From Candidatus Undivivens industriae (GTDB taxonomy: Bacteria > Omnitrophota > Gorgyraeia > Gygaellales > Profunditerraquicolaceae), in contig JAAYZR010000020.1 of NCBI GenBank assembly GCA_012514745.1, positions 13,293 through 77,292 of the forward strand: a stretch of 64,000 nucleotides of DNA, written 5' to 3'. A program made the translations under genes and the position numbers. Under the pieces are notes generated by a model that saw nothing but the letters and a program-made list of their open reading frames with translations, did not search any database and had not been told where the DNA came from. Below, one piece after another: positions 13,231 through 43,179 of this stretch. Within the stretch, counting starts at the first letter, position 1; each line of letters starts with the position of its first letter.

Positions 13231-13357
13231 GACAACGCGAAAAAAATGTTTTTTTGCTCCCCTTCCATAAGAAAATCCTGTTTTTATTCTTGAATGGAAT
13301 TGCTGCGGAAAGATATCGCCGGCGCACTGCGGAAAAACCGCTCACTTGCTCCAGGTT

Positions 13358-15835: not shown

Positions 15836-15836
15836 T

Positions 15837-16202
15837 TTATAGTCCTCTTTTCAGCAATTTAACTCTTACTTTTGTAGGTTTGATTTTATTTTTAAGGAAT
15901 TCGAGGGCGGCGTAAGGGCGGGTATTTTCGCCGCAGGTAAAAATATCGAGGGCGATATGATTATGCTCGGGCCAGGTGTGAATGGCGATATGCGACTCCG
16001 CCAATATGACCACACCCGTAATCCCCTGCACGGGGAACTTGTACACGGAAGCTTTTAACGGCGTATTGTTGGCCGCTTTAGCCGCCCCCCAAAGCAATTT
16101 CTTCACCGCCGCGGGAGTCTCGTTCATCTTTTTAGGCGCTTCCAGATCGGCAATCAAATGGACAGTTCTAAAAGTCCCTTTTGTCTTAGAACAGCCTGTC
16201 AT
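15837..16202 (-). CDS. speH: S-adenosylmethionine decarboxylase proenzyme (SpeH type, pyruvoyl-dependent)
   Basis: 121 aa with the self-processing site ILAESHIAIHTWPE. Confidence 0.85.
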   Translation of the reverse strand: MTGCSKTKGTFRTVHLIADLEAPKKMNETPAAVKKLLWGAAKAANNTPLKASVYKFPVQGITGVVILAESHIAIHTWPEHNHIALDIFTCGENTRPYAALEFLKNKIKPTKVRVKLLKRGL

Positions 16203-16357
16203 CTCACCCCCCCCTATTTAAAGTTTCTCCGCCTTTTAAGCGGGTTTGTTGTAACGGTTTTAGAAGTAAACAACTCCCCTTATCTATTTAATTATATAAA
16301 TCCTTGGGAAAAAGCAAGTGTTTTTTGAATTTTTTTGGTTATTCCGGAGAATCTTTC

Positions 16358-16906
16358 TTATTTAAGATACGCCTTGCCGATCTTTATTTCCGAAACCGGC
16401 CTGTCCTGGGAGTCGGTGGCGGCACTCTCGATTTTCTGCACCACATCGTAACCGGAAACTACTTTGCCGAATATAGTATGTCGCATATTGAGCCAGGGGG
16501 TCTTGGCCGTGGTTATAAAAAACTGGCTTCCGTTTGTGCCGGGTCCGGCGTTGGCCATGGCCAGGATCCCAGGGGCGTCAAAAGTCGCCGCGGGCGAACA
16601 TTCGTCCTCGAACGGCTTGCCCCATATGGACTCCCCGCCGCGTCCGGTGCCGGTTGGGTCCCCTCCCTGAATCATGAAATTCTTGATCACCCGGTGAAAA
16701 ATCACTCCGTTATAATACCCCTTCTCAACCAACTTGCTGAAATTTTCGCTCGCCTTAGGAGCAACTTCCGGCATCAATTGCAGTTCTATATTCCCAAGAT
16801 TGGTCTCCAGCACTATGGTTTTCGCGTCCATGGCAAAAGCACCTCCGCAGATAATCGCACCGGTTAATAAAAAGACGAACGTTAAGGCCGCCGCAAACTT
16901 CCTCAT
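16358..16906 (-). CDS. Peptidyl-prolyl cis-trans isomerase, cyclophilin type, secreted
   Basis: Signal peptide, then cyclophilin motifs (FHRVIKNFMIQGGD, GSQFFIT). Confidence 0.9.
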   Translation of the reverse strand: MRKFAAALTFVFLLTGAIICGGAFAMDAKTIVLETNLGNIELQLMPEVAPKASENFSKLVEKGYYNGVIFHRVIKNFMIQGGDPTGTGRGGESIWGKPFEDECSPAATFDAPGILAMANAGPGTNGSQFFITTAKTPWLNMRHTIFGKVVSGYDVVQKIESAATDSQDRPVSEIKIGKAYLK

Positions 16907-17256
16907 TTTACGTCACCTCCGTTAGAAAACTTCTTTTTGAACTCCGCGTAAAGATATTTCAGTATACATCATCGCCGTCAAATATCAAGCCGCTGTGCAC
17001 AGTAAATTATTTCCCCCACCGGAAATTGTAGGATCTCTTTTAAAATTCATCCGGTACGAATTACGCCCGCTCTTTGCAAAACTCTTGTTACTCCGGGGGC
17101 ACTTTTCGGTAATTATCCGAAAACCAGAGCTGTTCCATCAGCGGCTTATTTTCAATATCTGTATGAAAGCGCGGTGAAGGCGGGATGGATGAATGCGGTG
17201 CCGGATATTCCTAACCGTCTGCAGGGCTTAGCTTTTTCTCTTTCATATTCTGGGAA

Positions 17257-18102
17257 TTATCTGTTCCTGCCCGCCCCGAACAGCGCCGAGACGGAGTAAC
17301 AGGCCGCGGCGAAAAGCACGATCGTCGCCCCGGACGCCGTTCCCCAATAGAAAGAAACGATCAAGCCGCTGATGCCGGAGAAAAGGCTGATCAACACCGC
17401 CCAGGCCGTGTAAGCGCGCATATTGCGGGAGATATTTCTGGCCGCCGCCGCCGGAAGCACAAGCAAGGAATTTATGATCAATATCCCGGCCAGTCTTATA
17501 GAAAGGATCACCACCAGCGCCAGCAGCAAGGTAAAACTAGTCTCCACCCAGAAAGTATTCACCTTGCGGCTGCGCGCCAGAGAAGAACTGATACTGGTGA
17601 AGATCATGGCATTACCGGCGGCGAGCCAATATACCATAACGGCCGCGGCGATCGCCAGCAGCCATCCTATCTGCGCGGGGGTAACGGTCAGGATATCCCC
17701 GATCAGGTAACCGGTGTATTTCGCGAAACCTCCCCGTCTGCTCAAGATAACTATTCCCAAGGCCACGATAAAAGCGAACAATACGCCCAGGACGGTATCC
17801 ATAGACGCCCGCGTCATGTTTTTCAAAAGGTTGACGCCTACGGAAAGCAGCACCGCCAGCAGAAGCATCGGCAATACCGGGTCCTGAAAGCCGAGCAGAA
17901 CGCCGATGGCGATACCGGTAAGCGCGGAATGCCCCAGGACATCGGTAAAGAAAACCATGCGGTTGCTGACCACCATCGTTCCCATCAAAGCGAACAGCGG
18001 GGTGACCAGCAAAACCGCCAGCAGGGCGTTTTTCATGAAGACATAATGCGCCCATTCAAAAGGCAGGGTGTTTACCAATTTGTACCAGAAGTCAATCAGC
18101 AT
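17257..18102 (-). CDS. znuB: Metal ABC transporter permease (ZnuB/TroCD family)
   Basis: 281 aa ABC-3 family polytopic permease, last gene of the zur-znuA-znuC-znuB block. Confidence 0.8.
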   Translation of the reverse strand: MLIDFWYKLVNTLPFEWAHYVFMKNALLAVLLVTPLFALMGTMVVSNRMVFFTDVLGHSALTGIAIGVLLGFQDPVLPMLLLAVLLSVGVNLLKNMTRASMDTVLGVLFAFIVALGIVILSRRGGFAKYTGYLIGDILTVTPAQIGWLLAIAAAVMVYWLAAGNAMIFTSISSSLARSRKVNTFWVETSFTLLLALVVILSIRLAGILIINSLLVLPAAAARNISRNMRAYTAWAVLISLFSGISGLIVSFYWGTASGATIVLFAAACYSVSALFGAGRNR

Positions 18103-18913
18103 TATCTCCGCCTTTGCCCTTATCCTTTACAATATCGGGCAGACAGGAAATATTCCACAAAGCCGCTCCGAATACCTCCACTAATTTACCGTCTGCCAGC
18201 ACCTCCTGCGGCGCGCCTTCAGCGATTACGCCGCGGTTAAGCAGCACCATCTTGTCCACGTAAGAATAGATCCCCGCAAGATCGTGCGTCACCAGAACGA
18301 CCGAGATATCATGCGTTTGCCGCAGACCGCGCACGATGCGGTAGAAAAGCGCCAATCCTTTCGCGTCCACTCCGCCGGCAGGCTCGTCGAGCAAAAGAAG
18401 ATCCGGGGCGGGCGTCATGGCGATCGCCAGCAGAACGCGCTGCAATTCCCCTCCGGAAAGATCGCCGACCTTTCTTTTGACAAGGTGCTCCGCGGAAAAC
18501 AGCGATAGGACCTCTTTGACCCTGCCGGCAGTGCTGCCGTCTATCCCGGCCCAAACCGGCCTGCGGGTTACCGCCGATGCCACCAAATCCGCGACGCTGA
18601 CGGGCGCCCCCTTTTCCAAATGCAGTTTCTGCGGAACATAACCTATTTGGGGCGTCTGGGAAGGATTACCGCCGACGCGGAAGGATATCCTCCCCTGGTA
18701 AGGCATCTCTCCCATCAAAGTGCGCAACAGAGTGGTCTTGCCCGCCCCGTTGGGCCCGACCACGCCGACGACCTCGCCGCAGTTAACGTGCAGATTGACT
18801 CTAGACAGTATAACGTTGCTGCCCAGTTTTACCGTCAGATCCTCCACCCTCGTGCAGCAATGTTCGCAGGTATTAAGCAATCCGTCTCCTCCGCCTTTAT
18901 TTCCGGAAGGCAT
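18092..18913 (-). CDS. znuC: Metal ABC transporter ATP-binding protein (ZnuC)
   Basis: Walker A GPNGAGKTTLL, signature LSGGELQRV, Walker B LLLDEP. Confidence 0.85.
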   Translation of the reverse strand: MPSGNKGGGDGLLNTCEHCCTRVEDLTVKLGSNVILSRVNLHVNCGEVVGVVGPNGAGKTTLLRTLMGEMPYQGRISFRVGGNPSQTPQIGYVPQKLHLEKGAPVSVADLVASAVTRRPVWAGIDGSTAGRVKEVLSLFSAEHLVKRKVGDLSGGELQRVLLAIAMTPAPDLLLLDEPAGGVDAKGLALFYRIVRGLRQTHDISVVLVTHDLAGIYSYVDKMVLLNRGVIAEGAPQEVLADGKLVEVFGAALWNISCLPDIVKDKGKGGDNAD

Positions 18914-19787
18914 TCTTCAAAACTTCCAGATTCTTTTCCATTATCTTAAAATAGGCGCCGTCTTCGTCCGGTCCGCTCACCGCCGGATCAAGCACATACA
19001 CTTTCAATCCTGTTTCCGCGGCGATGGTTTCGGCGGCTGAAGACGGATACTGGGGTTCGCTGAACAACACGCAGCCGTCTCCGCCCGAATTCTTGATCAG
19101 GTCTATCGTCTCCGCAAGTTCCTTCGCGCTGGGCTCGCTCCCCGGTTCTCGTTCCACCACGGCCGCGATCTCCAGTCCAAATTCCTCGGCGAAATACGGG
19201 AACGCCTCGTGAAAAGTGATAATCTTCCTGCCTTTATAGGACGACAGCTGCGCGTGCATTTGTTTCCGCAGAGAGTCCAGCTTCGCTGCGTAGTCGGCTG
19301 TATTCTGGGCGTAAAACTCTTTGTGCGCCGGATCCAGGCTTTGCATGGCCGCGCCGAGGTTCTTCACCTGTTTGACGGCGCCGGAAATGCCCACCCAGAT
19401 ATGAGGGTTTGCCTCATCACCGCTTTTTATCAAAGAAATCCCTTCCGATACGCCGATAATGCGCAAACCGGGATGCCGGGCCGCCACCTCTTCAAGAAAA
19501 GACTCCATGCCGGCGCCGTTAACGATCAACGCCTGGGCCCCGGCGAGCTTTTTCATGTCCGCGGCAGTAAGCGCGTAATCATGCAGGCACCCGGTGAACG
19601 GTGGAGTAAGATTTTCCAGCGACACTCCCGGCACGTCTTTTATCACGTTCCTGGCCATAATATACACCGGATAAAAAGAAGCGACTACCTTTATTTCCTT
19701 CTGCGCGGCGCACGCGCCGCGCGCGAACACACCGGTAAATACCGACAACAACACAACTCCCGTCACAAACCGTTTATATCCATTCAT
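18897..19787 (-). CDS. znuA: Periplasmic metal-binding lipoprotein/solute-binding protein (ZnuA/TroA family)
   Basis: Signal peptide; TroA-fold residues (HDY, HIW, H-E); 296 aa. Confidence 0.85.
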   Translation of the reverse strand: MNGYKRFVTGVVLLSVFTGVFARGACAAQKEIKVVASFYPVYIMARNVIKDVPGVSLENLTPPFTGCLHDYALTAADMKKLAGAQALIVNGAGMESFLEEVAARHPGLRIIGVSEGISLIKSGDEANPHIWVGISGAVKQVKNLGAAMQSLDPAHKEFYAQNTADYAAKLDSLRKQMHAQLSSYKGRKIITFHEAFPYFAEEFGLEIAAVVEREPGSEPSAKELAETIDLIKNSGGDGCVLFSEPQYPSSAAETIAAETGLKVYVLDPAVSGPDEDGAYFKIMEKNLEVLKNAFRK

Positions 19788-19815
19788 CTCCGCCTCCCTT
19801 AAGAATATTGTCCGG

Positions 19816-20247
19816 TTATGGGCTTTCCTTCCTCCGGCATTCCGAACACAACCCTTCTATACGCAGAAAATGATGCTGAACCTTGGCGTTAAGTTTTTCT
19901 TCTATGAAACTGGATATTTCCGGAAAATTGCAGAATTCCACCTCTTCGACTTTGTTGCACTTGCTGCAGACAAAATGATGGTGATCTATATGCGGCTTGC
20001 GGCAGAGACTGTAATAAAGCCGCCGGCTGCCGTGTTCTATTTTTGCCAGGATACCGGCCCCCTCCAGTTCTTCCAGGATACGGTAGATTGAAGGCAGACC
20101 TACCTCCAGAGACTCCTTCCCCAGCATCTGTTTGATCTCATAAGGGCCGAGATACCGTTTTTGCCGCAAGAACAACTCAAGCACCGCTTTTCTGCGCGGA
20201 GTTATCTTGAAATGATGTTCTTTTAATACCGCCAGATATTTTTCCAT
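19816..20247 (-). CDS. zur: Fur-family transcriptional regulator, likely Zur
   Basis: MEKYLAVLKEHHFKITPRRKAVLELF... wHTH and the C-terminal Cys pairs C-SKC...CSEC. The track ORF begins 13 codons upstream; the ATG at 20247 is the likely start. Confidence 0.8.
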   Translation of the reverse strand: MEKYLAVLKEHHFKITPRRKAVLELFLRQKRYLGPYEIKQMLGKESLEVGLPSIYRILEELEGAGILAKIEHGSRRLYYSLCRKPHIDHHHFVCSKCNKVEEVEFCNFPEISSFIEEKLNAKVQHHFLRIEGLCSECRRKESP

Positions 20248-20286
20248 TATGCTTTGCTCGCGAACCTCCGCAAAAACTCCGGGCAA

Positions 20287-20300
20287 CCGATAATTATCGG
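20287..20300. promoter_or_regulatory. Fur-box-like palindrome CCGATAATTATCGG immediately upstream of zur
   Basis: 14-bp perfect palindrome with a GATAATTATC core, ~40 nt upstream of the zur start. Confidence 0.45.
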
Positions 20301-20328
20301 TAAAAACGAAATTCCTTTCGCATCAACG

Positions 20329-20351
20329 TAAATAGAAATGATTTCTATTTA
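20329..20351. promoter_or_regulatory. Zur-box-like 23-bp perfect palindrome TAAATAGAAAT-G-ATTTCTATTTA
   Basis: 11-1-11 palindrome resembling the Firmicute-type Zur box (AAATCGTAAT-N-ATTACGATTT), upstream of zur-znuACB. Confidence 0.5.
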
Positions 20352-20433
20352 TAGCACAAAATAATACCGGCTGTCAACGGCGTAATGAAATTCAAACGGG
20401 CTAAAACGGAGAGTGTCGTTTAGAACGGAAGGG

Positions 20434-20712
20434 CTATTTCTTCTCTTTGCGCTCCCAGTAGTCGTTTTCCCAGCGTTTTTTCTCTTCTTCGTGAAGCTTA
20501 TTCTCCGGGTTGATTATATTTTTCTCCGCCCGGCGGCGCGAGGATTCCTCTTTATTCTTCTCTTCCGTTTCCTGGTTCTTAGTTTTATGCGACAGCGAAG
20601 AAAAAATGAAGAAAGCGATAATTATCATTACGATCCATAAGAAAATGGTCATATTCCCTCTCTGTCTGTTCTGTTTAAGGAGCCTTCCTGTTTTGGGATC
20701 TCCGCGCCGCAA
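20434..20712 (-). CDS. Hypothetical small membrane protein with a Lys/Glu-rich tail
   Basis: ORF only. The internal start MTIFLWIVMIIIAFFIF... gives one TM plus a low-complexity charged tail. Could be spurious. Confidence 0.25.
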   Translation of the reverse strand: MRRGDPKTGRLLKQNRQRGNMTIFLWIVMIIIAFFIFSSLSHKTKNQETEEKNKEESSRRRAEKNIINPENKLHEEEKKRWENDYWERKEKK

Positions 20713-26826: not shown

Positions 26827-27327
26827 TTATTCAATCAAAACTATCCCGTAATAATTCCCCTTACACCCGGCAGAAGAAATCACCTTTATCGGATAACCAT
26901 TGGCGCGTACAGTAGAGTAGACGTCTATGCCGCAGGCTTCCATTGACGGACGGGTTTTGGCCGGATTACGACAGAACTTCCCGCATTTGCTGCATAACTG
27001 ACACGGCCCGGCCCCCATCCCGAACGCTTTATAATAACCGTCCAGGAATATCTCCCGCTCCAAAGCCGGGATCAAGGCGTGGATATCCGTGTATTCGTCG
27101 CCGTGCACCAGCAGGGCTTTCCTATAGAAACTTATAACCCGCCGCGTCACCTCCGGCGCCGGCGAATATGGAGGACAGGTCAGACTCTGTCCATAGCCGT
27201 CGCAGCCGAACTGGCACTTCATCCTCACCCAATCGGCAACCACGATGCTCCTCGCGGAGATCGTCTTTGCGTCTCTTGCCCCCATCTCCTTCGCGCGTTT
27301 TATGTATTTAGTGTATTTCCGCATCAT
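26827..27327 (-). CDS. DUF2284-like predicted metal-binding protein (Cys-rich)
   Basis: CQFGCDGYGQSLTCPP and CQLCSKCGKFC motifs; 166 aa. Confidence 0.5.
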   Translation of the reverse strand: MMRKYTKYIKRAKEMGARDAKTISARSIVVADWVRMKCQFGCDGYGQSLTCPPYSPAPEVTRRVISFYRKALLVHGDEYTDIHALIPALEREIFLDGYYKAFGMGAGPCQLCSKCGKFCRNPAKTRPSMEACGIDVYSTVRANGYPIKVISSAGCKGNYYGIVLIE

Positions 27328-27829
27328 GTATTATGTCACCCGGGTTACGTTCTGTATCCGTATCCCATTGTTCGTGATTATTCACAATATATTCGCGTAT
27401 ACGGCTCAATGAAGATTCATCCCGGATGATGTGATCATAAAACGATTTTTGCCAATGGAATTTGTCCCCGGATTTAATCATTTCATTTATGCGCCGTGAC
27501 GAAAATGTCTTTAACGCGCGGATGATTTCCGGCAATCCATGATTTTTTGTAGGGAACGGTTTCAAACCGTTCCCTGTGTTGTCAATTACAACGATCCCAT
27601 GCACGTGATTCGGCATTACGATAAATTCATCCAATTCGATATTCCGATAATGATTGGACAAATCAACCCAGCACGTCGATACAAAACGGCCGTTTTCATT
27701 TAATTCCATGACGCCGTTTTCTATGCTGCCAAACCATTCCCGCCTGCCCTGCGTGCAAATGGTAACGAAATAACACCCGTTCTGCGAATAATCGTAATTC
27801 TTTAAACGATTCGCTTTGCGCTGATCCAT
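27308..27829 (-). mobile_element. REP-associated tyrosine transposase (RAYT / TnpA-REP, IS200-like Y1 HUH)
   Basis: HUH motif NHVHGIVV and the catalytic Tyr motif WQKSFYDHIIRDE; 173 aa. REP-like hairpins lie inside and just upstream. Confidence 0.8.
27552..27574. repeat. REP-like perfect hairpin GGGAACGGTTT-C-AAACCGTTCCC embedded in the RAYT coding sequence
   Basis: 11-bp perfect inverted repeat; it encodes residues NGLKPFP in frame. Confidence 0.7.
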
Positions 27830-27836
27830 AATTACC

Positions 27837-27857
27837 GGAACGGTTATAAACCGTTCC
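27837..27857. repeat. REP-like hairpin GGAACGGTT-ATA-AACCGTTCC 8 nt upstream of the RAYT start codon
   Basis: 9-bp perfect arms with the same core as the intragenic copy. Confidence 0.7.
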
Positions 27858-27865
27858 CTACTGGT

Positions 27866-33919: not shown

Positions 33920-34313
33920 CTTTTGCGGGTATTTCGCCGAAACAGTTATTCTGCCTTATTATACGGGTTTTGCGGAGGAGAGACAAGGGGGAGAAGGAAG
34001 AAAATGGAACTACGCGAGTGGATCCTTCGGTCATTCGCGAGAGGAGCGGCGCCTAAGCGGTTCCGACACTAACGAAATATAAAAAGCGCAAGGATGACCT
34101 CTTGCGCGAGAAATGTTGCAGACAATAGAACGCAAGTTCTCAAGCTAAGCTTTATATCAAGAACGGCTTTTGAAATTTCCTTGTATGCAACAAGCTGTTC
34201 CTCCAAAATCCGGCATCTCGTTTCATGCTTGTTGTTGAATATATTGACTGCGATCGTTATTGCCCCACCAACAACTGCTCCGCAAAGCCAGTTATTGCAT
34301 TAAAATTCATTAT

Positions 34314-34724
34314 TCATATCTCCTCGATTGTTTCCCTTGCCCATTGATAAACTCTCGCAGTTACTTTAACCATCTCATCCGCAAAGGATTTGTTGATGCT
34401 GCGGCATTCGTATTGGACAAGGTTTTTGCGGGCGATGATTTTACGTAACTGCTTTGATTTCTCCTCAGTGCTTTCAAGCGTCAATCCAGCTACTAAGTCG
34501 CAAACATCAAAGTGGTCTTGCGAAATCGAACGCACGCCCTTTCCATAGACGCAAACCGCATCTGCGGATGAAATCGCACATTGAACAGCCAAGGTTGCTG
34601 CCGCATTCCAGTTTGAAGCATTAAATGCGGCTAACATCTGCTCATAATTATCGGCGGCCTTCTTTAAATATTCTGAAGCTGCCGACCTATCCTCTTGCCT
34701 TATTTTTATCTCGCGAGCAGTCAT
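34314..34724 (-). CDS. HEPN-domain protein (putative toxin of a HEPN/MNT pair)
   Basis: 136 aa alpha-helical; R-x5-H motif (RSISQDH). It lies 2 nt downstream of the nucleotidyltransferase gene. Confidence 0.55.
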   Translation of the reverse strand: MTAREIKIRQEDRSAASEYLKKAADNYEQMLAAFNASNWNAAATLAVQCAISSADAVCVYGKGVRSISQDHFDVCDLVAGLTLESTEEKSKQLRKIIARKNLVQYECRSINKSFADEMVKVTARVYQWARETIEEI

Positions 34725-34726
34725 AT

Positions 34727-35356
34727 CTAAATCTCCAATGGTTCTTTCCCATATAAAACGGAATAAGATTTCATTAAGGTTGAAACCGGAGGCTGATTCT
34801 TTTTAAGTCGCTGCCTAAAGTCGGCGGATGACTTTATATATGAATCTAGCTGAACGCCGAAATAGGCCTTAAATCTGGGGGCAATTTCAGAAAGGAAGAC
34901 ATTTTCAACTGAATTAAGATCCACGGCCCTAGAGACTACCACCGCAACGTCAATATCGCTTCCCTTTTTAGCTGTTTCTGTCTGCATGCTTCCATAAAGG
35001 ATTAAAGATGCAATTTTGGCTTTAATCTTAATTCGTTTGAATTCTTTCAAAAGAAAGTTACGGATTTCGCTTTTAATATTACTTTCAGCGGCAAACATCG
35101 GATGAATAATTTTTTTAACAATCCGATCTTCCTCATTTAAAGTATAAATATGTTGCTTGCCAATAATATCTAATTTTAAGATGTTACGGCTATGCAGATC
35201 TTTTAATGAGTCATGTGTTGAGGGAGCTGAATAACCAATGAGCTTAGCAATTTGGCGGCCTGTAGTTTTGAAGTTCTTTCGGGCAGTTAAAAGCCGCAAA
35301 ATAGCTACTTTGGAAGGAGAATCAACGATTTCTTCAATTTGGAATGCTTTAATCAT
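34727..35356 (-). CDS. Nucleotidyltransferase (MNT, GS-x-DxD) with N-terminal winged-HTH; putative antitoxin
   Basis: LILYGSMQTETAKKGSDIDVAVVV pol-beta-type NTase motif; N-terminal HTH (VAILRLL...GRQIAKLIGYS). Confidence 0.65.
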   Translation of the reverse strand: MIKAFQIEEIVDSPSKVAILRLLTARKNFKTTGRQIAKLIGYSAPSTHDSLKDLHSRNILKLDIIGKQHIYTLNEEDRIVKKIIHPMFAAESNIKSEIRNFLLKEFKRIKIKAKIASLILYGSMQTETAKKGSDIDVAVVVSRAVDLNSVENVFLSEIAPRFKAYFGVQLDSYIKSSADFRQRLKKNQPPVSTLMKSYSVLYGKEPLEI

Positions 35357-35896
35357 AATACAAACCTAACATATGTAAGGTTAACCTTACATTAATATAA
35401 CATCTCAAAAGAAATTGTCAACTGAAAAATGAGCTTCATATTACTACGGAATGCAAGGCGTGATCCGTCTACTCAAATAACTATTTTCGCCACATACACA
35501 AGAGATAACGATTGCAAAGAATCGTTTTGAATCGGTTCGAGAAGGGCTAACTAAAACTCATTTACTAAATTGCGATTCAGAAAGAGATAGCTAAGCTATA
35601 TTTATTGGGCTTTTTTAGCGAACCCGGGACGGGATTATAATTTGAAAAGTGGGGGTTAATAACAGCTGAAAAACAAAATAAATAATGCCCTGGCCAATGC
35701 CGCTAATCAGGGCGGTCTTTATCTCTTCATTTGGAATTTGAGAGGTTTAACTGGTTGCCCGAACTGGACGCCAGACGAACTTCAAGACTCCAGGAAATTC
35801 CGTTACTTGTAAAAATTTATGTCCGTAAGGACAAAAGCGGATTTATTATTTTTTACTAGCCGACATTTCATTGGGCTAATTCAATTTTGTTCTTAG

Positions 35897-36460
35897 TTAT
35901 ATATATTTCACCTCTGCTGCTTTTTTCTCTGGCGCATTAGGAAAACCGTCTTTGGGGTAGCCGAGTAAAATAGGTCCGTACACCTTTTCGCCTTCTTTCA
36001 GGGCAAGCGCTTCTCTAACCTTAGCATCGTCCAACACCAGCTGGCCAAAATAAACCCAACAGCTGCCTATCCCCAAAGAACGGGCTGCCAGCATTATATT
36101 TTGACAGACCATAGGGCAATCTAAATCTGCGGTCATTCCCGAGCCAATAATAAAAAGCACAACCGGAGCACCGTAATAAACCGGGTCGCTGACCTTACTA
36201 TCTATATCTTTTCGCATTTCTCTTAATGTTTCATTGGATTTTTCCATCCATTTTTTATAACGCGGTAGGGCAATCTCTGAAAGTCTCTTCCTGAATGCTT
36301 TATCCGTAACAACAGCGAACCTCCACCCTTGCGCATTGCATCCGCTCGGAGCCATGTTACCGGCGTCGATTATCGTCTGAAGCGCATCCTTCGCGATCTC
36401 TATTGAATCGTAGCTTCTAACCGATCTTCTTGTCATGATATTTTCGATAACCGGGTTCAT
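35897..36460 (-). CDS. Nitroreductase family protein
   Basis: RRSVRSY, APSGCNAQGWRF; 187 aa. Confidence 0.8.
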   Translation of the reverse strand: MNPVIENIMTRRSVRSYDSIEIAKDALQTIIDAGNMAPSGCNAQGWRFAVVTDKAFRKRLSEIALPRYKKWMEKSNETLREMRKDIDSKVSDPVYYGAPVVLFIIGSGMTADLDCPMVCQNIMLAARSLGIGSCWVYFGQLVLDDAKVREALALKEGEKVYGPILLGYPKDGFPNAPEKKAAEVKYI

Positions 36461-36507
36461 TGTTTTACAATCTCCTGATTTATGGCTGCCGATTATGGCT
36501 TAGGGAT

Positions 36508-36993
36508 TCATTCCCTATATCTAAATCTCGGGAAAAATCTTCCCGTTTTTCTCTGATATTCAATATATGCCTCTCCAAACCTGTTGACCATCATTCTTTC
36601 TTCGTATCTTACGATGTAATGAGATACCGGATGCAAAAGCACTGCCCACAAAACAAAAATGCAGCTATTGAGATAAACAGCCAATCCAAAGTTAAATATC
36701 GATAAAAATGCGGCGTAGAGCGGATGACGGACATATTTAAACGCACCGCTGGTGCATAGCTTATCACCTCTATCAGAGGCGGGTAATGATTTAACGCTCC
36801 AAACGATTACCGCCAGCGTCATCAGGATCGAAATGATAAATATTGAATTAAGAAGGGGCCGACTATTTGATAAGAGCGGAAGATATATTCTTTTGCTAAA
36901 CCAGTTCGCAACGAAAAAAAACACAAGGCTGATCGATAGTCCGGCAGGACCGCTGCCAAAAATTTTACCAAACCTCGTAGATTGCTTGTTCAT
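36508..36993 (-). CDS. Isoprenylcysteine carboxyl methyltransferase (ICMT)/phospholipid methyltransferase family membrane protein
   Basis: Polytopic; RHPLY motif and C-terminal ...EERMMVNRFGEAYIEYQRKTGRF. Confidence 0.65.
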   Translation of the reverse strand: MNKQSTRFGKIFGSGPAGLSISLVFFFVANWFSKRIYLPLLSNSRPLLNSIFIISILMTLAVIVWSVKSLPASDRGDKLCTSGAFKYVRHPLYAAFLSIFNFGLAVYLNSCIFVLWAVLLHPVSHYIVRYEERMMVNRFGEAYIEYQRKTGRFFPRFRYRE

Positions 36994-37088
36994 CGAGGGT
37001 TTCCGGAGAATATAATTTACGGTTTAATATTCCTACCTTTCCATCTTGTTGTATTTTATCACCCAGTTTCGAATAGTTGTCAATATAG

Positions 37089-37160
37089 CTGCCCCGCATG
37101 GACTCGAACCATGATAGTCAGATCCAGAATCTGAAGTCCTACCGATTAGACGACAGGGCA
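37089..37160 (-). tRNA. tRNA-Gln (anticodon CUG)
   Basis: Hand-folded cloverleaf: acceptor UGCCCUG/CGGGGCA (U1:A72, as in bacterial tRNA-Gln), D-stem GUCU/GGAC, anticodon loop UUCUGGA, T-arm CAUGG-UUCGAGU-CCAUG. CCA is not encoded. Confidence 0.85.
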
Positions 37161-37298
37161 ATAATCATATAAATCTTTTAGTAGAAAATGCCGCGCGCGC
37201 CGAAGCATAGCCGCGACAATTCACGGCTTTTTATTTTATTACAGGGCCCCGGTCGTGACAAGTGTAATTTTTCCGCCCGCGCCTCCGGAGAATACCTT

Positions 37299-38636
37299 TT
37301 ATAACTGCTTCACCCAGGCCATCAATCTACGGCTTACGCGTTCTTTGCCAAGATAGTAGATGACCTCGAACAGACCGGGGCCGATGGTCTTACCGGTGAG
37401 CGCCACCCTGACCGGGTGTATCAGCTCTCTCGACTGCAAGCCCAGTTCCACGAGCAGGCCGCGAAAGCATTCTTCGATGGTAACGATGTCAAACGGTTCA
37501 AGCACTTGCAGGCGGTCAGCGAACAATTTGAACTCGCGGGAGAAGTCTCTGGTTAAATGTTTCTCCTTCGCCTGGGGATCAATGGCGAAGTCATCCTTGA
37601 AGAGAAAATCCGCCCAAGCGGGAAAATCCTGAAGCGTGCCCAGCCTGCCCTGAAAGAGTTTGACCACGGAAAGCAGGTAATCTTTGCTGAATTCCGAAAC
37701 ATCGAGCCCTTGTTCTTTAAGGAACGGTTCCAGCGCCGCTGACAGGTCCAGCGTATCGGCGGTCTTGATATACTGGTTATTGATCCAGTTGAGTTTACCC
37801 ATATCGAAAGTGGCCGCGGTCTTGTTGGCGTTCTTGATGTCAAACTTCTTGATCGCGTCCCTTATGCCGATTATCTCCTGGTTCCCTCCGGGCGACCAGC
37901 CCAGCAGAAGCAGGTAGTTCACCAGCGCCTCCGGCAGGTATCCCATGCGGCGATAATCGCTGATGGCGGTAGCGCCGGTACGTTTGGAGAGGCGTCCGCC
38001 GTCGGATCCGAGAATCAACGGCAGGTGTGCGTATTCCGGTACCGAGAAATTCAACGCCTGGTAGAGCAATATCTGTTTCGGCGTGTTCGAAATGTGATCA
38101 TCCCCCCGGATGACGTGGTTGATGTTCATCGCCGCGTCATCCACCACGCAGGCAAAGTTGTAAGTCGGGGTACCGTCGGACTTGATGAGCACCTGGTCCT
38201 TGATCACTCCGGTGTCGAAGGAAATCTCTCCGTGGATCAGATCATTGAAGACGACCTTCTGCTGCGCGACCTTGAATATTATGGCGTCCTGTTTTTTCTC
38301 TATCTCCGTTCCGTCCTCCTCTCCCTCGGCGTTCGTCCCGGACGGGGAAGCCCGGTAAGCTTTGCCTTCCTGAAGGAGCCGTTCGGCGATCTCACGGTAT
38401 ATGTCAAATCGTTTACTCTGATAGTATATTTCATCCCAGTTGAAGCCCATCCAGGAAAGGCTGTCAAGTATCTCTTCGAGATACTCCGGTCTGGAGCGCT
38501 TAACGTCGGTATCCTCTATGCGCAGGATGAACTTCCCTCCCTTGGCGCGCGCGTAAAGCCAGTTGAACAACGCCGTGCGCGAACCTCCAATATGCAAAAA
38601 CCCGGTGGGACTGGGCGCGAACCTTACTCTGACCAT
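37299..38636 (-). CDS. gltX: Glutamyl-tRNA synthetase
   Basis: MVRVRFAPSPTGFLHIGG (HIGH) ... KLSKR; the ATG at 38636 is preceded by AAAGGAAAA. Confidence 0.95.
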   Translation of the reverse strand: MVRVRFAPSPTGFLHIGGSRTALFNWLYARAKGGKFILRIEDTDVKRSRPEYLEEILDSLSWMGFNWDEIYYQSKRFDIYREIAERLLQEGKAYRASPSGTNAEGEEDGTEIEKKQDAIIFKVAQQKVVFNDLIHGEISFDTGVIKDQVLIKSDGTPTYNFACVVDDAAMNINHVIRGDDHISNTPKQILLYQALNFSVPEYAHLPLILGSDGGRLSKRTGATAISDYRRMGYLPEALVNYLLLLGWSPGGNQEIIGIRDAIKKFDIKNANKTAATFDMGKLNWINNQYIKTADTLDLSAALEPFLKEQGLDVSEFSKDYLLSVVKLFQGRLGTLQDFPAWADFLFKDDFAIDPQAKEKHLTRDFSREFKLFADRLQVLEPFDIVTIEECFRGLLVELGLQSRELIHPVRVALTGKTIGPGLFEVIYYLGKERVSRRLMAWVKQL

Positions 38637-38758
38637 CTTCTTTTTCCTTTCTTGACTTAAATCAATTAGACGCACAACGGCTTAAAGGCCGTGGTTTGCT
38701 CATGATTTTAATACTGAGCGGCGCCTGTTTAGCGCCGTCGATAAACCGGGCGTTCCGG

Positions 38759-39310
38759 CTATCTTGCCAAAGCTATGCCTGCAAGCAGCGCTTTCCTGTT
38801 CATCTCCAGCAAGTCACGTTTCTGCTCTTTGATTATCTCAAGTATCTCTTCCACGGAGAACATCTTTTTGACCGCGATATAGGCGCCGAGCGCCACCATA
38901 TTGGCGGCCTTCAGAGAACCGGCGGCCGCGGCCGCGGTCTCTGTGAAAGGATACCCGCGGACATCGATAGCGGTTTGAACCGGAGCCTTTGCCAGCGAGG
39001 AATTATATAACAACAACCCTCCCTGTCTGAGCCGCGGGAGAAATCTTCCGAGAGAAGGCTGGTTCATCACGATCAAGGTATCGGCTTTTTCCACGTAAGG
39101 AGATCCCTGTTCCGACTTGGAGATCACCACCATGCAATTGGCGGTGCCGCCGCGGACTTCGGCTCCGTAAGAAGGCAGCCACGTAACCCGGAGGCCGGCG
39201 CGCATGCCGGCCTCGGCCAACAGTTTCCCCAGAAGCATTATCCCCTGCCCCCCGGAACCGGCGGCGATTATTTTCTCGTCCTGCCCCAATATTTTGGCTG
39301 ATTTAACCAT
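38759..39310 (-). CDS. 2-oxoacid:ferredoxin oxidoreductase, gamma subunit
   Basis: IIAAGSGGQG motif. The start overlaps the beta-subunit stop by 1 nt. Confidence 0.8.
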   Translation of the reverse strand: MVKSAKILGQDEKIIAAGSGGQGIMLLGKLLAEAGMRAGLRVTWLPSYGAEVRGGTANCMVVISKSEQGSPYVEKADTLIVMNQPSLGRFLPRLRQGGLLLYNSSLAKAPVQTAIDVRGYPFTETAAAAAGSLKAANMVALGAYIAVKKMFSVEEILEIIKEQKRDLLEMNRKALLAGIALAR

Positions 39311-40038
39311 TACTTTATCCTGCCTAACGGGAATTCTTTCACCATTGTATCCCTTATCCAGTCCATCGCCGACGCCGGGGACATTCCCCAGTAAGTCGGA
39401 CACGGAGAAAGCAGCTCCACCAGCGAAAAGCCTCCGCCTCTAAGCTGATTGTCGAACGCCAAATGCAGGGCCGCCTTGGCCTTGATTATCTCCTGGGGAC
39501 AGAATAGCCCGCGGCGCTCGACGTATTTCACGCCGGGAAGCATTGCCAGCATTTCGGATATTTTGAGCGGGTAGCCCTGGACTTCCGCTCGTCTGCCGCC
39601 GGGAGTGGTGCTGGTTACCTGGCCCAGCAGAGTGGTCGGAGCCATCTGTCCTCCGGTCATCCCATAGATGGCGTTGTTCACGAATACGACCGTCAGATTC
39701 TCCCCGCGGTTGGCGGCGTGTATAGTCTCGTTGGTCCCGATAGCGGCAAGATCTCCGTCTCCCTGATAAGTGAATACGACCCTGTCCGGGCGGCAGCGTT
39801 TAATCCCGGTGGCGACCGCCAGCGCCCTGCCGTGCGCCGCCTCGCAACAGTCGAAATTCCAGTAATCGTAGGCCACCACAGCGCACCCTACCGGCGCCAC
39901 GGCGATCACCTTTCCCCTCACTCCCAGAAGATCTATCACTTCCGTCACCAGGCGGTGCGCTATGCCGTGCCCGCAGCCCGGGCAGTAGTGGGTCGTGATG
40001 TCGCGTAAAGATTCCGGGCGAGAGAATATCTTTTTCAT
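39310..40038 (-). CDS. 2-oxoacid:ferredoxin oxidoreductase, beta (TPP-binding) subunit
   Basis: CPGCGHG, GDGD...NN TPP-binding motifs; true start MKKIFSRPE. Confidence 0.85.
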   Translation of the reverse strand: MKKIFSRPESLRDITTHYCPGCGHGIAHRLVTEVIDLLGVRGKVIAVAPVGCAVVAYDYWNFDCCEAAHGRALAVATGIKRCRPDRVVFTYQGDGDLAAIGTNETIHAANRGENLTVVFVNNAIYGMTGGQMAPTTLLGQVTSTTPGGRRAEVQGYPLKISEMLAMLPGVKYVERRGLFCPQEIIKAKAALHLAFDNQLRGGGFSLVELLSPCPTYWGMSPASAMDWIRDTMVKEFPLGRIK

Positions 40039-41100
40039 AGTTTGCGCGCCTCCGCGGCTATCACTTCTTCCAGCGGAAAGCCTCCGCCCGCTCTGCCGAT
40101 AAAATTTACTTGGGCCCTTCCGTCGAGCGCCAGCTTCACGTCCTCCAGCATCTGCCCGTAAGACATCTCCGCCACCAGGAAATTGCGCGCCGGAGACGTT
40201 TTCGGCAAAAAGGCCTGTACCGGAAAAGGCCAGAGCGTCACCGGCCTGATCAATCCGACTTTCTTCCCTTCTTTGCGCAGGCGGCGCACCACCGCCGAAC
40301 ATATTCTGGCCATAGTCCCGTAAGCGACCAGCACCAGGTCGGCGTCTTTAAGCATTGTGCCTTCGTAACGAGCCTCTTTTTTCAGCATCACGGCATATTT
40401 CTTCTGCAGGCGCAGATTAAAATCCTCGAGGTCTCCGTCCCTTAGATAAAAAGATTTGACCACATTCGGTTCCCTGCCGGCGCATCCGGTCAACGCCCAC
40501 GGTTTAGAGATGTTCACCGCCTTTTTTGCGGTGAAGGCGGCGGGGACGCGCACGCTGAAAGGTTCCATAACCTGGCCAAGCATCCCGTCTCCCAGAATAA
40601 TGGCCGGAACACGGTATTTGTCGGCCAAAGAAAAGGCGGAGAACATGGTATCGAAGGACTCCTGCACGCGGGAAGGCGCCAGCACCAGACAATGATAATC
40701 GCCGTGGCCTCCGCCTTTGGTCGCCTGGAAATAATCCGATTGCGAAGGCAGGATATTACCCAGCCCGGGCCCGCCTCGCATCATGTTCACGATCACCGCC
40801 GGGAGTTCCGCGCCGGCCAGATAAGATATCCCCTCCTGCTTCAGACTTATTCCCGGGCTGGAAGAGGAAGTCATCGCCCTGATCCCGCTTGCGGCCGCGC
40901 CCATGACCATGTTGATCGCCGCGATCTCCGATTCCGCCTGGATGAAGACGCCTCCGGCCTCCGGCATGCGCCTGGCCATGTAAGCGGTCAGTTCGTTCTG
41001 CGGGGTGATCGGGTATCCGGCGTAGAAACGGCAGCCTGCCTGTATGGCTCCCTCAGCGATCGCTTCATTTCCGCTCAGCAGAATTTTCTTTTCCTTGTTC
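40035..41100 (-). CDS. 2-oxoacid:ferredoxin oxidoreductase, alpha subunit
   Basis: LSGNEAIAEGAIQAGCRFYAGYPITP; likely GTG start at 41100 preceded by GAGGTG. Confidence 0.85.
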
Positions 41101-41305
41101 ACTTTTGCACCTCTATACAGCATTCCGGACAGACCAGGGCGCAGAAACAGCACCCTCCGCAGATATTCGTATCTTCGTCAAACTCCACATACACGGCGCC
41201 CAGCGCGTTCAGCTTTCCGGATTTCTTCAGCAGCCCCTTATGGCAAAATTTAATGCACAACCCGCAGCCTTTGCACTTCTCCGCGTCTATGACCGGTTTA
41301 GCCAT
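41099..41305 (-). CDS. 2-oxoacid:ferredoxin oxidoreductase, delta subunit (2x[4Fe-4S] ferredoxin)
   Basis: 68 aa with CKGCGLCIKFC and CGGCCFCALVCP. Confidence 0.8.
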   Translation of the reverse strand: MAKPVIDAEKCKGCGLCIKFCHKGLLKKSGKLNALGAVYVEFDEDTNICGGCCFCALVCPECCIEVQK

Positions 41306-41307
41306 CC

Positions 41308-43179
41308 CTATCTCCTCACTTCCACGGCTATCCTGCCGGCGATTCCAGCGGCATCCAGACCGTACCGTTCCAATAATTCCCGCCTCTTGGCGCAGGGAGG
41401 AAATTCCTCCGGCACTCCGAGTTTGATCACCGGCACTCCCAGGATTTCTTCCACCGCCGAGCCGAATCCGCCCTCGACGATACCTTCTTCCACCGTAAAG
41501 ACCGTTTTTCCCCGCGCCGCGATTTCTTTTATCAAGCCGTTGTCCAGCGGCTTGACGAACCTGGCGTTGACCACGTTTCCGGATAAACCTTTTTCTTCCA
41601 GCATGGCCGCGGCTTCCTCAGCGGCCGACACGGCGCCGCCCAGGGCAAATATCGTGAAATCATTTCCTTCTTTCAAAACTTCCGCCCCGGAGAGCTTCAC
41701 CGGAACGGCCATCCCGCCCGTCAGCCTGCGGCGCAGTAAACAAGAAGCCGTCTTGGGATACCTCAGCGAAACCGGCCCTTTCAACGACAACGAAAACTCC
41801 AACATCATCTCCAGGTCGTGCGCGTCCGCAGGGGCCATTATCGTCATATTAGGGATGTGGCGAAGAAAACTTATGTCGAAAATCCCCTGGTGCGTAGGCC
41901 CGTCGTCGCCGACGAGCCCCGCCCGGTCGAGAGCGAAGATTACGTGCAGTCCCTGTAAAGCCACACACTCTATTATCTGATCATACGCCCTCTGTAAAAA
42001 AGTGGAGTATATCGCCGCCACCGGGATCAACCCTTGCCTGGCCAGGCCGGCGGCGAAGCAAACAGCGTGTTCCTCCGCTATTCCGACATCGAAGAACCTT
42101 TGCGGATACTTATCCCGGAAGGCGCCCAAACCGGTGCCCTCGGCCATAGCCGCGGTTATCGCCGTCAGCCTTTTCTCCCGAGCGGCGAGATCGACTATTT
42201 TCCGCCCGAAAACCGAAGTGTAGGTAGCTGCCGAGAGCGGCGCCGGCTCCTGTTTTTTGCCGGCGGACAGATCGAACGGCCCCGTGCTGTGAAAACGCAC
42301 AGGGTCTTTCTCCGCGGGGACAAACCCCTTCCCTTTCTTAGTAATCACGTGCATGAACAAAGGGCCCTTGACCGCGAGTATCTTCTTCATCGCCGGGATC
42401 AGCTGGGCGAGATTGTTGCCGTCGAAAGGGCCGAAATACCGAAAACCCAGTTCCTCGAAAAAAACACCGGGGATAAAAAGGCCTTTTAACCCTTCCTCGA
42501 ATTTGTTGGCCAGCTTGAGAAGTCTTTTGCCTCGCGGCACACGGGAATTAAGAAAAGACTCCAGCGAGCTGCGAAAACGGTTGTAAACCGGCAGAGAGAT
42601 TATCTTGTTGATATAAGTGCTCACCGACCCCACGTTGGGAGCTATGCTCATTTCATTGGTATTCAACACCACCAGCAGGTCTTTTTTCAGGTGACCGGCG
42701 TTATTTAACCCCTCGAAACAGAGTCCGCCGCTCAAAGAGCCGTCGCCGATCACCGCGGCGGCCTTGAATTTCTTTTCCCCTGCTTCGAGATCCCCGGCGC
42801 AGGCGAGGCCGAGGGCCAGGGATACCGCGGTCGAGCTGTGCCCGGTGGTAAAAAGATCGTATTCCGATTCCTCTTTGCAGGGGAAGCCGCTCAGGCCGCC
42901 GTATTTACGCAGCCCGGCGAATCCGGCATTCCTGCCGGTTATGATTTTATGGGCGTAGGTCTGGTGGCCGACATCCCAGACGATCTTGTCCCGCGGGGTG
43001 TCGAGGCAGTAGTGTAGGGCGATCGCGAGTTCCACGGCCCCGAGGCTGGAAGCCAAATGTCCGCCGTTTACGGAGACTACCTCCAGTATACGGCGGCGTA
43101 TTTCACCGGCGAGTTCCGGCAACTTGTCCATGGGCAGCCCGCGCAGGTCGGCGGGAGAATTAACACGTTCCAGCAGCAT
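41308..43179 (-). CDS. dxs: 1-deoxy-D-xylulose-5-phosphate synthase
   Basis: 623 aa; GGHLASSLG, DVGHQTYAHKI, GDG motifs. Confidence 0.95.
   Translation of the reverse strand: MLLERVNSPADLRGLPMDKLPELAGEIRRRILEVVSVNGGHLASSLGAVELAIALHYCLDTPRDKIVWDVGHQTYAHKIITGRNAGFAGLRKYGGLSGFPCKEESEYDLFTTGHSSTAVSLALGLACAGDLEAGEKKFKAAAVIGDGSLSGGLCFEGLNNAGHLKKDLLVVLNTNEMSIAPNVGSVSTYINKIISLPVYNRFRSSLESFLNSRVPRGKRLLKLANKFEEGLKGLFIPGVFFEELGFRYFGPFDGNNLAQLIPAMKKILAVKGPLFMHVITKKGKGFVPAEKDPVRFHSTGPFDLSAGKKQEPAPLSAATYTSVFGRKIVDLAAREKRLTAITAAMAEGTGLGAFRDKYPQRFFDVGIAEEHAVCFAAGLARQGLIPVAAIYSTFLQRAYDQIIECVALQGLHVIFALDRAGLVGDDGPTHQGIFDISFLRHIPNMTIMAPADAHDLEMMLEFSLSLKGPVSLRYPKTASCLLRRRLTGGMAVPVKLSGAEVLKEGNDFTIFALGGAVSAAEEAAAMLEEKGLSGNVVNARFVKPLDNGLIKEIAARGKTVFTVEEGIVEGGFGSAVEEILGVPVIKLGVPEEFPPCAKRRELLERYGLDAAGIAGRIAVEVRR

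Follow-up and report, generated by a model that had tools for sequence, protein, structure and literature searches.

A low-GC islet in a 64-kb stretch of Candidatus Omnitrophota DNA (hereafter the window, meaning the whole stretch analyzed) abuts the 3' end of a tRNA-Gln(CUG) gene, and it is likely that this islet consists of two pieces lying side by side: the remnant of an element of the serine-integrase phage type, bounded by attachment (att) sites, and a separately mobile toxin-antitoxin (TA) cassette that encodes a minimal nucleotidyltransferase (MNT) and a HEPN protein. Both pieces lie in a phylum-wide insertion hotspot downstream of gltX and tRNA-Gln(CUG). An original prediction, made from the letters of the window, had interpreted positions 33920-37160 as one old, decayed tRNA-targeting island. 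Our analysis retains the foreign and variable nature of this DNA and its start at the tRNA 3' end, but not its unity, as the att-bounded remnant covers 35756-37088 and the TA pair, beyond the attR site, is an independent cassette.

Composition, gene order and boundaries of the islet

The window is affiliated with Candidatus Omnitrophota, and the relatives whose GltX is 87-96% identical to its own are Omnitrophota metagenome-assembled genomes. GC content falls to the minimum of the window in the 3078-bp stretch 34101-37178 (0.405, against a window mean of 0.518 with a standard deviation of 0.036), the next lowest non-overlapping stretch having a GC content of 0.467. For 34011-37088, the segment that varies among relatives, the value is 0.41 against 0.52. 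GC content at third codon positions (GC3) is 0.34-0.46 in the four islet genes compared with 0.639 +/- 0.061 in 50 other open reading frames (ORFs), which places the four (z -2.95 to -4.88) lowest among the 54 ORFs of the window. The islet is thus the extreme of the window both in sliding-window GC and in codon usage, the latter assessed through GC3, and the low-GC patch that had been predicted is real, although the drop from about 57% that went with it applies to the right side only, where that baseline is found (38-42 kb); to the left, GC content is 0.44-0.50 over the interval 31-34 kb.

On the minus strand gltX (37299-38675) is followed by tRNA-Gln(CUG), a PEMT/ICMT-like methyltransferase gene, a nitroreductase gene, a 540-bp gap, the nucleotidyltransferase gene and the HEPN gene, and then, after a 394-bp gap, by genes for a DUF481 protein, a GT4 glycosyltransferase and an ArsP-type permease. 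Identical gene order with identical proteins is present in at least 10 independent assemblies (JGI, ENA, and Logan), and misassembly or chimera formation can therefore be dismissed; samples containing the organism include SRR13155359, SRR34875123, and JGI 3300026311. The 540-bp gap (35357-35896, GC 0.367) had been described as some 500 bp of AT-rich non-coding DNA; its composition agrees with that description, but it contains attR, a displaced tRNA flank and the promoter and operator of the TA pair. An Rfam search of the gap returned nothing besides tRNA.

The right boundary was correctly predicted to be the 3' end of tRNA-Gln(CUG). ARAGORN places this gene at 37088-37160 on the minus strand and Rfam at 37089-37160 (57 bits), its 3' end points toward the islet, and the tRNA of L014 and L012 does not differ from it (100% identity; L numbers designate the loci and contigs used for comparison). 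Homology with relatives L011-L014, in which the DNA of the gltX region is 81-91% identical, stops at 37089, the 3' terminus of the tRNA. The left edge of the variable segment lies at 34011-34085 (minus strand), where the conserved backbone, comprising the DUF481 gene and its upstream region, restarts; homology resumes at 34035 in L060 and at 34010 in L012.

Between these edges the relatives carry other cargo. L012 has a gene for a PAS protein and a ribbon-helix-helix (RHH)/ParE-RelE pair before DUF481; L011 and L014 have a GIY-YIG gene, a 137-amino-acid ORF and a TA pair 88% identical to that of the window; and L013 has a GIY-YIG gene, a 183-amino-acid ORF and a gene for a Fic protein. None of the GIY-YIG, 137-amino-acid, Fic, PAS, RHH/RelE or DsbA sequences of the relatives was found in the window by tblastn. 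The absence of the islet genes from relatives with 87-96% identical GltX speaks against the view that the genes are native, their low GC reflecting local constraints (membrane proteins, relaxed selection) in a recombination-prone intergenic region. The lowish GC of the left flank would fit such a view, as would the presence of a PEMT-like gene after tRNA-Gln in L011 (43% identity) and L027; yet GC3, on which protein constraints have little bearing, lies 3-5 standard deviations under the window mean in all four genes, and att scars flank the PEMT/nitroreductase pair. We consider a native origin highly improbable.

Attachment sites of the probable remnant

In the window, attL takes its attB-derived half from tRNA-Gln(CUG), whose 3' terminus carries the crossover core GGGCA(G). 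The adjoining segment, 37064-37087 on the minus strand, matches L018 and L060 and corresponds to the integrase-proximal arm (P'): window positions 37065-37161 are 95.9% identical over 98 nt to the tRNA of L018 together with the 3' end of its serine-integrase ORF. L060, whose gltX is 98% identical to that of the window, keeps 77 nt of the P' arm, 96% identical to L018 and identical to the attP of L098. By this homology the 24 nt that follow the tRNA in the window appear to be the P' arm, and with it the last trace of the integrase end.

The second junction lies within the 540-bp gap. There, attR (35756-35846, minus strand), recognized by its motif and by homology to attP, consists of a P arm of phage origin that closes with the core GGGCA. 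Its terminal motif, GTTCGTCTGGCGTCCAGTTCGGGCA (35756-35780), occurs only once in the window, where chance alone would give 0 matches, and over its last 29 nt attR has the same sequence as the P arm in the attP sites beside the serine integrase genes of L098, L102, and L107. Furthermore, the equivalent site of L039 shows 80% identity to the window attR across 91 nt, and L017, L021, and L022 have the site as well; in these four loci it lies 1.0-2.3 kb downstream of tRNA-Gln. The motif had no exact match in IMG/VR, although relatives of the integrase occur there.

All four site types of a site-specific integration system could be aligned, with arms exchanged at the core GGGCA(G). The attB site is tRNA-Gln followed by native flank (L031, L041, and L048); attP is the motif with the P' arm and the 3' end of the integrase gene immediately behind it (L098, L102, and L107); attL is the tRNA followed by P' (L018, L060, and the window); and attR is the P arm followed by tRNA-Leu(GAG) 20-118 nt later in L076, L083, L095, L122, and L125, or, in the window, by a displaced tRNA terminus and flank. 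The enzyme itself is found in relatives. In L018, L036, and L043 a large serine recombinase (Resolvase, Recombinase, and Zn_ribbon_recom domains) is encoded on the opposite strand beside the tRNA-Gln 3' end, with the integrase ORFs of L018 and L036 running antisense through tRNA-Gln and the gene of L043 ending about 330 nt away. The L018 element is a prophage; its integrase matches phrog_95 at 1e-107, and it also codes for a sigma factor, a replication initiator, a ParB-methyltransferase, TerS, and TerL. In IMG/VR, seven viral contigs carry integrases 58-93% identical, and four of the seven abut tRNA-Gln(CTG) in the arrangement of L018. Judged from sequence, the domains and the four sites that would identify integration by a large serine recombinase thus occur in the relatives and not in the window itself. 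The serine recombinase encoded in the L043 region (12956-20490) is distinct from that of L018, with which it shares 23% identity; the region also codes for a DUF2924 protein and for the methylase (627 amino acids) and helicase/res (935 amino acids) of a type III restriction-modification pair.

The original prediction also called for a direct repeat of the tRNA 3' end near 33.9-34.3 kb. There is none at that position, the att site lying instead at about 35.76 kb in the gap, and neither a search with a 23-nt pattern (at most 3 mismatches) nor a general repeat search detected a long direct repeat of the tRNA 3' end. No long repeat is present because a serine integrase needs only a short core: attL and attR share only GGGCA as a repeat, and the 35.76-kb site, which was located through homology to relatives, shares with the tRNA only a core of about 6 nt and tRNA-like flanks. 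A 16-nt match between 34949-34964 and 37079-37094 was rejected as a chance similarity within the nucleotidyltransferase gene.

In the order of events that we infer, the first piece of the islet (35756-37088) would derive from an element that entered the tRNA-Gln 3' end by means of a large serine integrase; the full-length relatives of this element are temperate phages. Recombination between attP, which overlaps the 3' end of the integrase gene, and attB, at the end of the tRNA acceptor stem, would swap arms at GGGCA(G) and thereby produce attL (tRNA and P') and attR (P and displaced tRNA terminus with flank). Both junctions are still present in the window, whereas the integrase and all phage genes have been lost; the methyltransferase and nitroreductase genes stand between the junctions. 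The islet holds no recombinase and the full 64-kb window no serine-recombinase homologue, so that the earlier statement that no integrase remains stands for both.

This remnant resembles other prophage and island remnants at tRNA genes, such as cryptic or grounded prophages and cis-mobilisable elements with att sites but no integrase, in its insertion at a tRNA 3' end, deviant composition, variable presence, leftover accessory cargo, and retention of attL and attR despite loss of integrase and structural genes. It differs from them in that the cognate enzyme is a large serine integrase and not the tyrosine integrase usual at tRNA sites. In a mycobacterial survey, overlap with a tRNA or tmRNA gene was noted for 16 of 23 tyrosine systems, and the one serine-integrase site with a described position overlaps the start of a protein-coding gene (PMC10654092). 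Further differences are the core of about 6 nt without a long direct repeat, an integrase ORF antisense across the tRNA, and a size of only 1.33 kb.

Scanning of metagenomes with the attR motif matched 99 stretches, 80 of which were analyzed. Both motif and tRNA-Gln are present in 19 contigs, and in every one of them (19/19) the two share a strand, the tRNA preceding the motif by 1.2-3.4 kb and no recombinase being encoded in the interval. Two attR motifs in tandem were found in L104 and L123, and a P-O-P' junction in L074. These observations bear on another reading of the att-bounded piece, namely that it is a small integrase-less cassette (1.2-3.4 kb) with functional attL and attR which a phage integrase moves in trans. 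The 19 contigs together with L017, L021, L022, and L039 show tRNA-Gln, 1-3.4 kb of cargo, and a conserved P arm, the cargo is varied (Fic, GIY-YIG, RelE, OB-fold, PEMT/nitroreductase) without a recombinase between, and the tandem motifs and the P-O-P' junction fit accretion. The search pattern itself, however, favored conserved motifs, a Fic-like gene by the motif in many loci fits a single ancient, vertically inherited event, and neither an excised circle nor an empty/occupied polymorphism of a mini-cassette was seen. We consider this reading possible, but rather unlikely. Somewhat more doubtful still is a broader form of it, in which the slot between tRNA-Gln and its displaced 3' end would serve across Omnitrophota as an integron-like landing pad. 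A temperate-phage serine integrase, whose attP overlaps the stop region of the integrase gene and mimics the tRNA end, would then mobilise both its prophage and, in trans, integrase-less cassettes of 1-3 kb with defense and conflict genes (Fic, RelE, GIY-YIG, methyltransferase/nitroreductase). The PEMT-nitroreductase unit of the window would be one such cassette.

The predicted toxin-antitoxin cassette

The HEPN/MNT pair lies outside the att-bounded unit, attR being situated between the nitroreductase gene and the pair, and it constitutes a cassette of its own. Homology to other copies covers 1.09 kb (35402-34313), starting 45-70 nt before the nucleotidyltransferase ATG and ending at the HEPN stop codon. 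The cassette occurs in unrelated loci (L063, L064, and L066); among the contexts of other copies are a site between type II secretion system genes (where HEPN is truncated), one beside a pantothenate kinase gene, and a sugar-biosynthesis cluster. Its GC content is 0.39-0.40 in hosts of 50-52% GC, and hundreds of homologues, 65-100% identical, belong nearly all to Omnitrophota. In the sugar-biosynthesis cluster of L066, a 33-nt direct repeat (5880-5912/7117-7149, 97% identical) brackets the cassette and hints at its mode of insertion; the window copy has no such repeat.

L060 is the closest relative, with a backbone 97-98% identical to that of the window. The window cassette shares only 88% identity with its counterparts in L011, L014, and L060, and the L060 cassette stands at another position, between the tRNA/P' arm and the PEMT gene. 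At the position of the window pair, L060 has a 34-nt, 97%-identical remnant of a window-type nucleotidyltransferase gene beside a truncated nitroreductase gene. The presence of this remnant together with an 88% allele elsewhere means that one allele was deleted and another gained nearby, that is, that the cassette has turned over independently.

These findings are difficult to reconcile with the single island of the original prediction, in which the whole 3.1-kb segment would be one old insertion, the TA pair its original stabilising cargo, and the internal att-like site incidental. Low GC is uniform over the four genes, the segment replaced relative to L012 is one block (34011-37088), and TA modules are typical island cargo, all of which would suit one island; but the attR motif separates the TA pair from the att-bounded unit, the L060 backbone carries the 88% allele elsewhere plus the window-type remnant, the cassette has identical boundaries in unrelated loci, and the TA pair is found in 0/80 of the other motif-bearing contigs. 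A single island is consequently improbable in our judgment.

The cassette carries its own regulatory signals. A promoter scan (11/12 matches, extended -10) placed promoter and operator at 35357-35421 on the minus strand, with the promoter at 35421-35394 made up of a -35 box TTGACA, a 16-nt spacer, and a -10 box TATATT with an extended TG. A perfect palindrome of 18-20 nt, TGTAAGGTTAACCTTACA, at 35373-35392 overlaps the start site and is followed by a GTTAGGTT half-site. Seven cassettes that stand in different contexts and are 68-88% identical have kept these elements, the palindrome being exact in five of the seven and having 1-2 mismatches in L064 and L066. At the other end, a terminator scan detected an intrinsic-terminator-like hairpin at 34086-34107 (minus strand; 7-bp stem with 5 GC pairs and a T run), which lies about 210 nt past the cassette end and closes the TA transcription unit. 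A supposed third membrane-protein gene remnant downstream of HEPN (34069-34311) was rejected, as it has no similarity to the 153-amino-acid ORF of L060; the 137-amino-acid ORF of L011 is likewise dissimilar to the latter.

The second piece of the islet (about 34086-35421) is, on this reading, a self-contained TA cassette inserted in the flank beyond attR. From its architecture and conservation, a winged helix of the nucleotidyltransferase would repress the operon at the palindrome overlapping the sigma-70-type promoter, and, by analogy with HepT/MntA, the nucleotidyltransferase would neutralise the presumed HEPN RNase, either by nucleotidylylation, as shown for that system (PMC7641770), or by binding. 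Loss of the antitoxin would then free the HEPN protein to cleave RNA.

Families and folds of the TA proteins

The first gene of the pair (34727-35356, minus strand) encodes, as had been predicted, an MNT-type nucleotidyltransferase of 209 amino acids (PF01909, 2.9e-8; PF18765) with an N-terminal winged helix-turn-helix (wHTH). Its G122-S123-x10-D134-I-D136 motif has G122, S123, D134, and D136 invariant in 24 homologues, and an AlphaFold2 (AF2) model (pLDDT 73.6) shows an ArsR/MarR-like wHTH (residues 14-73) followed by a long helix and then by the nucleotidyltransferase core. The protein is the presumed antitoxin and autorepressor.

The second gene (34314-34724, minus strand) follows after a spacer of 2 nt, in agreement with the earlier description, and encodes a HEPN-domain protein of 136 amino acids, assigned by PF05168 (18.6 bits) and by its predicted fold. 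The AF2 model (pLDDT 88.8) best matches 2hsb, 1ufb, 1wol, and 1o3u at TM scores of 0.70-0.75, of which 2hsb and 1o3u are listed under HEPN-T (PF05168; PMC3710099), and many homologues carry a precomputed PF05168 assignment. Against the HepT structures 5yep and 7bxo, TM scores are only 0.47-0.6. An R65-x5-H71 motif fits Rx4-6H, with R65 invariant and H71 present in 21/22 homologues, and sits between model helices 2 and 3; a second invariant cluster (R94, R99, K100, N101, Y105, E106, and R108) lies nearer the usual position. The protein is a presumed RNase toxin. PF05168 was its only Pfam match, with none to PF01934 (DUF86), no match was found in the PADLOC and NCBIfam libraries, and when the sequences in the PDB were searched with each of the TA proteins, and with a HEPN profile, no significant match emerged.

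Taken together, these results place the pair in the COG1708/COG2250 HEPN-T branch and not in DUF86/MntA. Such modules were described by Makarova 2009 (PMC2701414) and Anantharaman 2013 (PMC3710099), and the window pair shares with them a two-gene operon with the nucleotidyltransferase first, small proteins, a patchy distribution with evident mobility, the GS...DxD motif, and a HEPN fold nearest to 2hsb (AF_0298), 1ufb (TT1696), 1wol, and 1o3u. It differs in the N-terminal ArsR/MarR-like winged helix with a conserved palindromic operator, and in a distribution largely confined to Omnitrophota, mesophilic and environmental, and not to thermophiles. Makarova et al. considered that a DNA-binding component is possibly encoded in trans (PMC2701414); the wHTH fusion provides in cis the part which those authors placed possibly in trans.

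The original prediction had compared the pair to HepT/MntA, the type VII TA known from Shewanella SO_3165/3166 and Aphanizomenon HEPN/MNT, in which nucleotidylylation neutralises the toxin (PMC7641770). The comparison is apt for the class of mechanism: a presumed nucleotidyltransferase antitoxin is encoded upstream of a presumed HEPN RNase toxin, and by analogy the mechanism is probably alike, possibly involving tyrosine AMPylation. It does not extend to the families, as the window HEPN is PF05168/HEPN-T and not DUF86, MntA has no wHTH, and the nucleotidyltransferase scores 28.7 bits against the MntA model NF047752, whose cut-off is 60. Moreover, the modified tyrosine next to Rx4-6H in HepT has no obvious counterpart, the window residues after H71 being F-D. 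The nucleotidyltransferase also matches, along its full length, the PADLOC PDC-M05A model PDLC04368, residues 12-198 aligning with positions 11-184 of 201 (E 2.3e-14). The wHTH-nucleotidyltransferase architecture is therefore already catalogued as a defense-island-associated candidate, but PDC-M05 is a candidate system and the HEPN partner in the window matches no PADLOC model.

Cargo genes and the flank behind attR

The att-bounded unit (35756-37088, about 1.33 kb) contains only two genes. The one nearer the tRNA (36508-36993, minus strand; GC3 0.426) encodes a membrane methyltransferase of 161 amino acids which, by its profile matches, belongs to the PEMT/ICMT superfamily (PF04191 PEMT, 1.3e-8, 35.7 bits with a cut-off of 25; PF04140 ICMT, 9.8e-5, 23.1 bits with a cut-off of 24; NCBIfam isopcys_mtase, 55 bits with a cut-off of 160). 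An isoprenylcysteine-carboxyl-methyltransferase-like membrane enzyme had been predicted, and the superfamily is thus supported while the scores for ICMT itself fall under the Pfam and NCBIfam cut-offs. Homologues 74-79% identical in other Omnitrophota stand in unrelated contexts, unlinked to nitroreductase or tRNA-Gln, and no PEMT-nitroreductase donor unit was found among these contexts. The other gene (35897-36460, minus strand; GC3 0.457) encodes a nitroreductase-family flavoenzyme of 187 amino acids, the predicted family being clear from PF00881 (1.8e-30); its L060 copy is truncated at window position 36234.

Behind attR, the segment 35581-35755 (minus strand) comprises a displaced tRNA-Gln 3' terminus (ACCA) and a downstream flank with two hairpins. 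It resembles the sequence directly after tRNA-Gln in L043 (76% over 84 nt, E 1.5e-9; 80% over 49 nt) and also matches L028, and the GC contents of L043 and L028 are 0.38 and 0.41. Nearest relatives L011-L014 have a different native flank, and that type forms the B' side of attR in L022, L076, and L092. Since the flank is of a type found in Omnitrophota of about 40% GC (L028 and L043), it is probable that the PEMT-nitroreductase piece either arrived together with flank (B') from its donor or came to lie on the scar left by a second element. In one possible history, the whole low-GC block was imported with its donor flank, the invariant tRNA acting as homology anchor; in the other, equally a possibility, the flank belongs, as its P' arm, to a second element of the L043 type, and the first element was stacked on top of it. 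The flank of about 330 nt between tRNA-Gln and the recombinase region of L043 is the one copied behind the window attR.

Several points weigh against a serine-integrase remnant lying beside a mobile TA cassette. The P' arm in the window is only 24 nt long, with about 4 differences from L018, so that its assignment rests on the 77 nt of L060; the absence of an integrase from the 64 kb means that there is no sign of site activity here; and the comparison sequences are all metagenome assemblies. PEMT and nitroreductase genes occur in 0/80 of the other att-bounded loci, and their entry after decay of the element is possible. The flank behind attR is unlike the native flank of the nearest relatives, which makes in-situ integration not the simplest history. 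For the TA pair, the PF05168 score of the HEPN protein is below the cut-off of 22 bits, and R-x5-H, between helices 2 and 3, may not be in the canonical catalytic position.

The tRNA-Gln slot in other Omnitrophota

Genes for 2-oxoacid:ferredoxin oxidoreductase, gltX, and tRNA-Gln(CUG) are syntenic across Omnitrophota (window 37299-43179; loci L011-L058), and the gltX-tRNA-Gln block often continues with tRNA-Leu(GAG) and tRNA-Glu(CUC); in L030 and L040 a glutaminyl-tRNA synthetase gene directly follows tRNA-Gln. The distance from tRNA-Gln to tRNA-Leu(GAG) in distant Omnitrophota ranges from 5 nt to 5.8 kb, the intervening genes being mostly singletons, and L031, L041, and L048, where tRNA-Leu(GAG) follows after 5-25 nt, represent unoccupied sites.

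Other kinds of insertion were observed at this slot. In L014, L011, and L013, elements of 2.5-2.9 kb begin with a GIY-YIG gene (112-122 amino acids) and carry in addition a HEPN/MNT pair or Fic. They are bounded by direct repeats of 54-106 nt (L014, 11658-11763/14153-14258; L011, 6001-6054/8498-8551; L013, 6233-6318/9119-9204), which begin at the GGGCAG core of tRNA-Gln and are made of native hairpin-containing flank. No recombinase is encoded in these elements, the single repeat copy in L012 represents an empty site, and the repeats are unlike the att pattern of serine integrases. This repeat (type-A flank) is absent from the window. In L060 (GCA_002452395.1 DKFL01000013, 5341-5802), an 86-amino-acid GIY-YIG gene lies on a 350-bp insert inside the tRNA-Gln region, with the break right after the anticodon CTG; the situation is similar in L062 and partly so in L061 (three independent assemblies). 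On either side of the insert stands a perfect direct repeat of 56 nt (20 nt of upstream sequence plus tRNA nt 1-36), so that the insert follows a pseudo 5' tRNA half and precedes an intact tRNA.

An RHH/ParE-RelE pair, 69-83% identical among copies, recurs by the tRNA-Gln slot, either before or just after the attR motif (L012, 12449-13055; L021, 20165-20675; L022, 12525-13047; L131, 5579-6095; L139, 4883-5360). The GltX of the host lineages is only about 61-65% identical to that of the window (L131 was not measured), and the pair represents a second TA cassette favoring this slot. The commonest cargo is a Fic-family gene that terminates some 150-200 nt before the attR motif and whose product is 26-44% identical to the L013 Fic; it was found in contigs L074, L079, L082, L083, L088, L090, L092, L100, and L106, as well as L111, L127, L129, L135, L137, L141, L143, L144, and L146.

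Elsewhere in the window, a 25-nt inverted repeat pair, GTAGGGAACGGTTTCAAACCGTTCC, lies at 27549-27573 and 27837-27861 (92% complementary, spacing 263 nt). Each arm forms a hairpin, and the repeat (27549-27861) adjoins a low-GC ORF at 27308-27829 (GC3 0.477, z -2.7).

Significance

The low-GC patch and its 540-bp "non-coding" gap are explained here as attR, a displaced tRNA flank, and the promoter and operator of a TA cassette, and two mobile units have been told apart where a scan of composition lumps them. The prophage scar and the TA cassette both belong to known kinds and do not overturn current understanding; the unusual points are a serine integrase at a tRNA gene, the many small integrase-less att-bounded units across the phylum, and the wHTH-MNT fusion. 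The wHTH-fused MNT/HEPN module is now on record, with an operator that is obvious. For Omnitrophota, the work describes a temperate-phage family with a serine integrase that targets a tRNA gene, with four att types defined from sequence alone, and the integrase together with its sites of about 50 bp constitutes a usable handle for a phylum without genetic tools.

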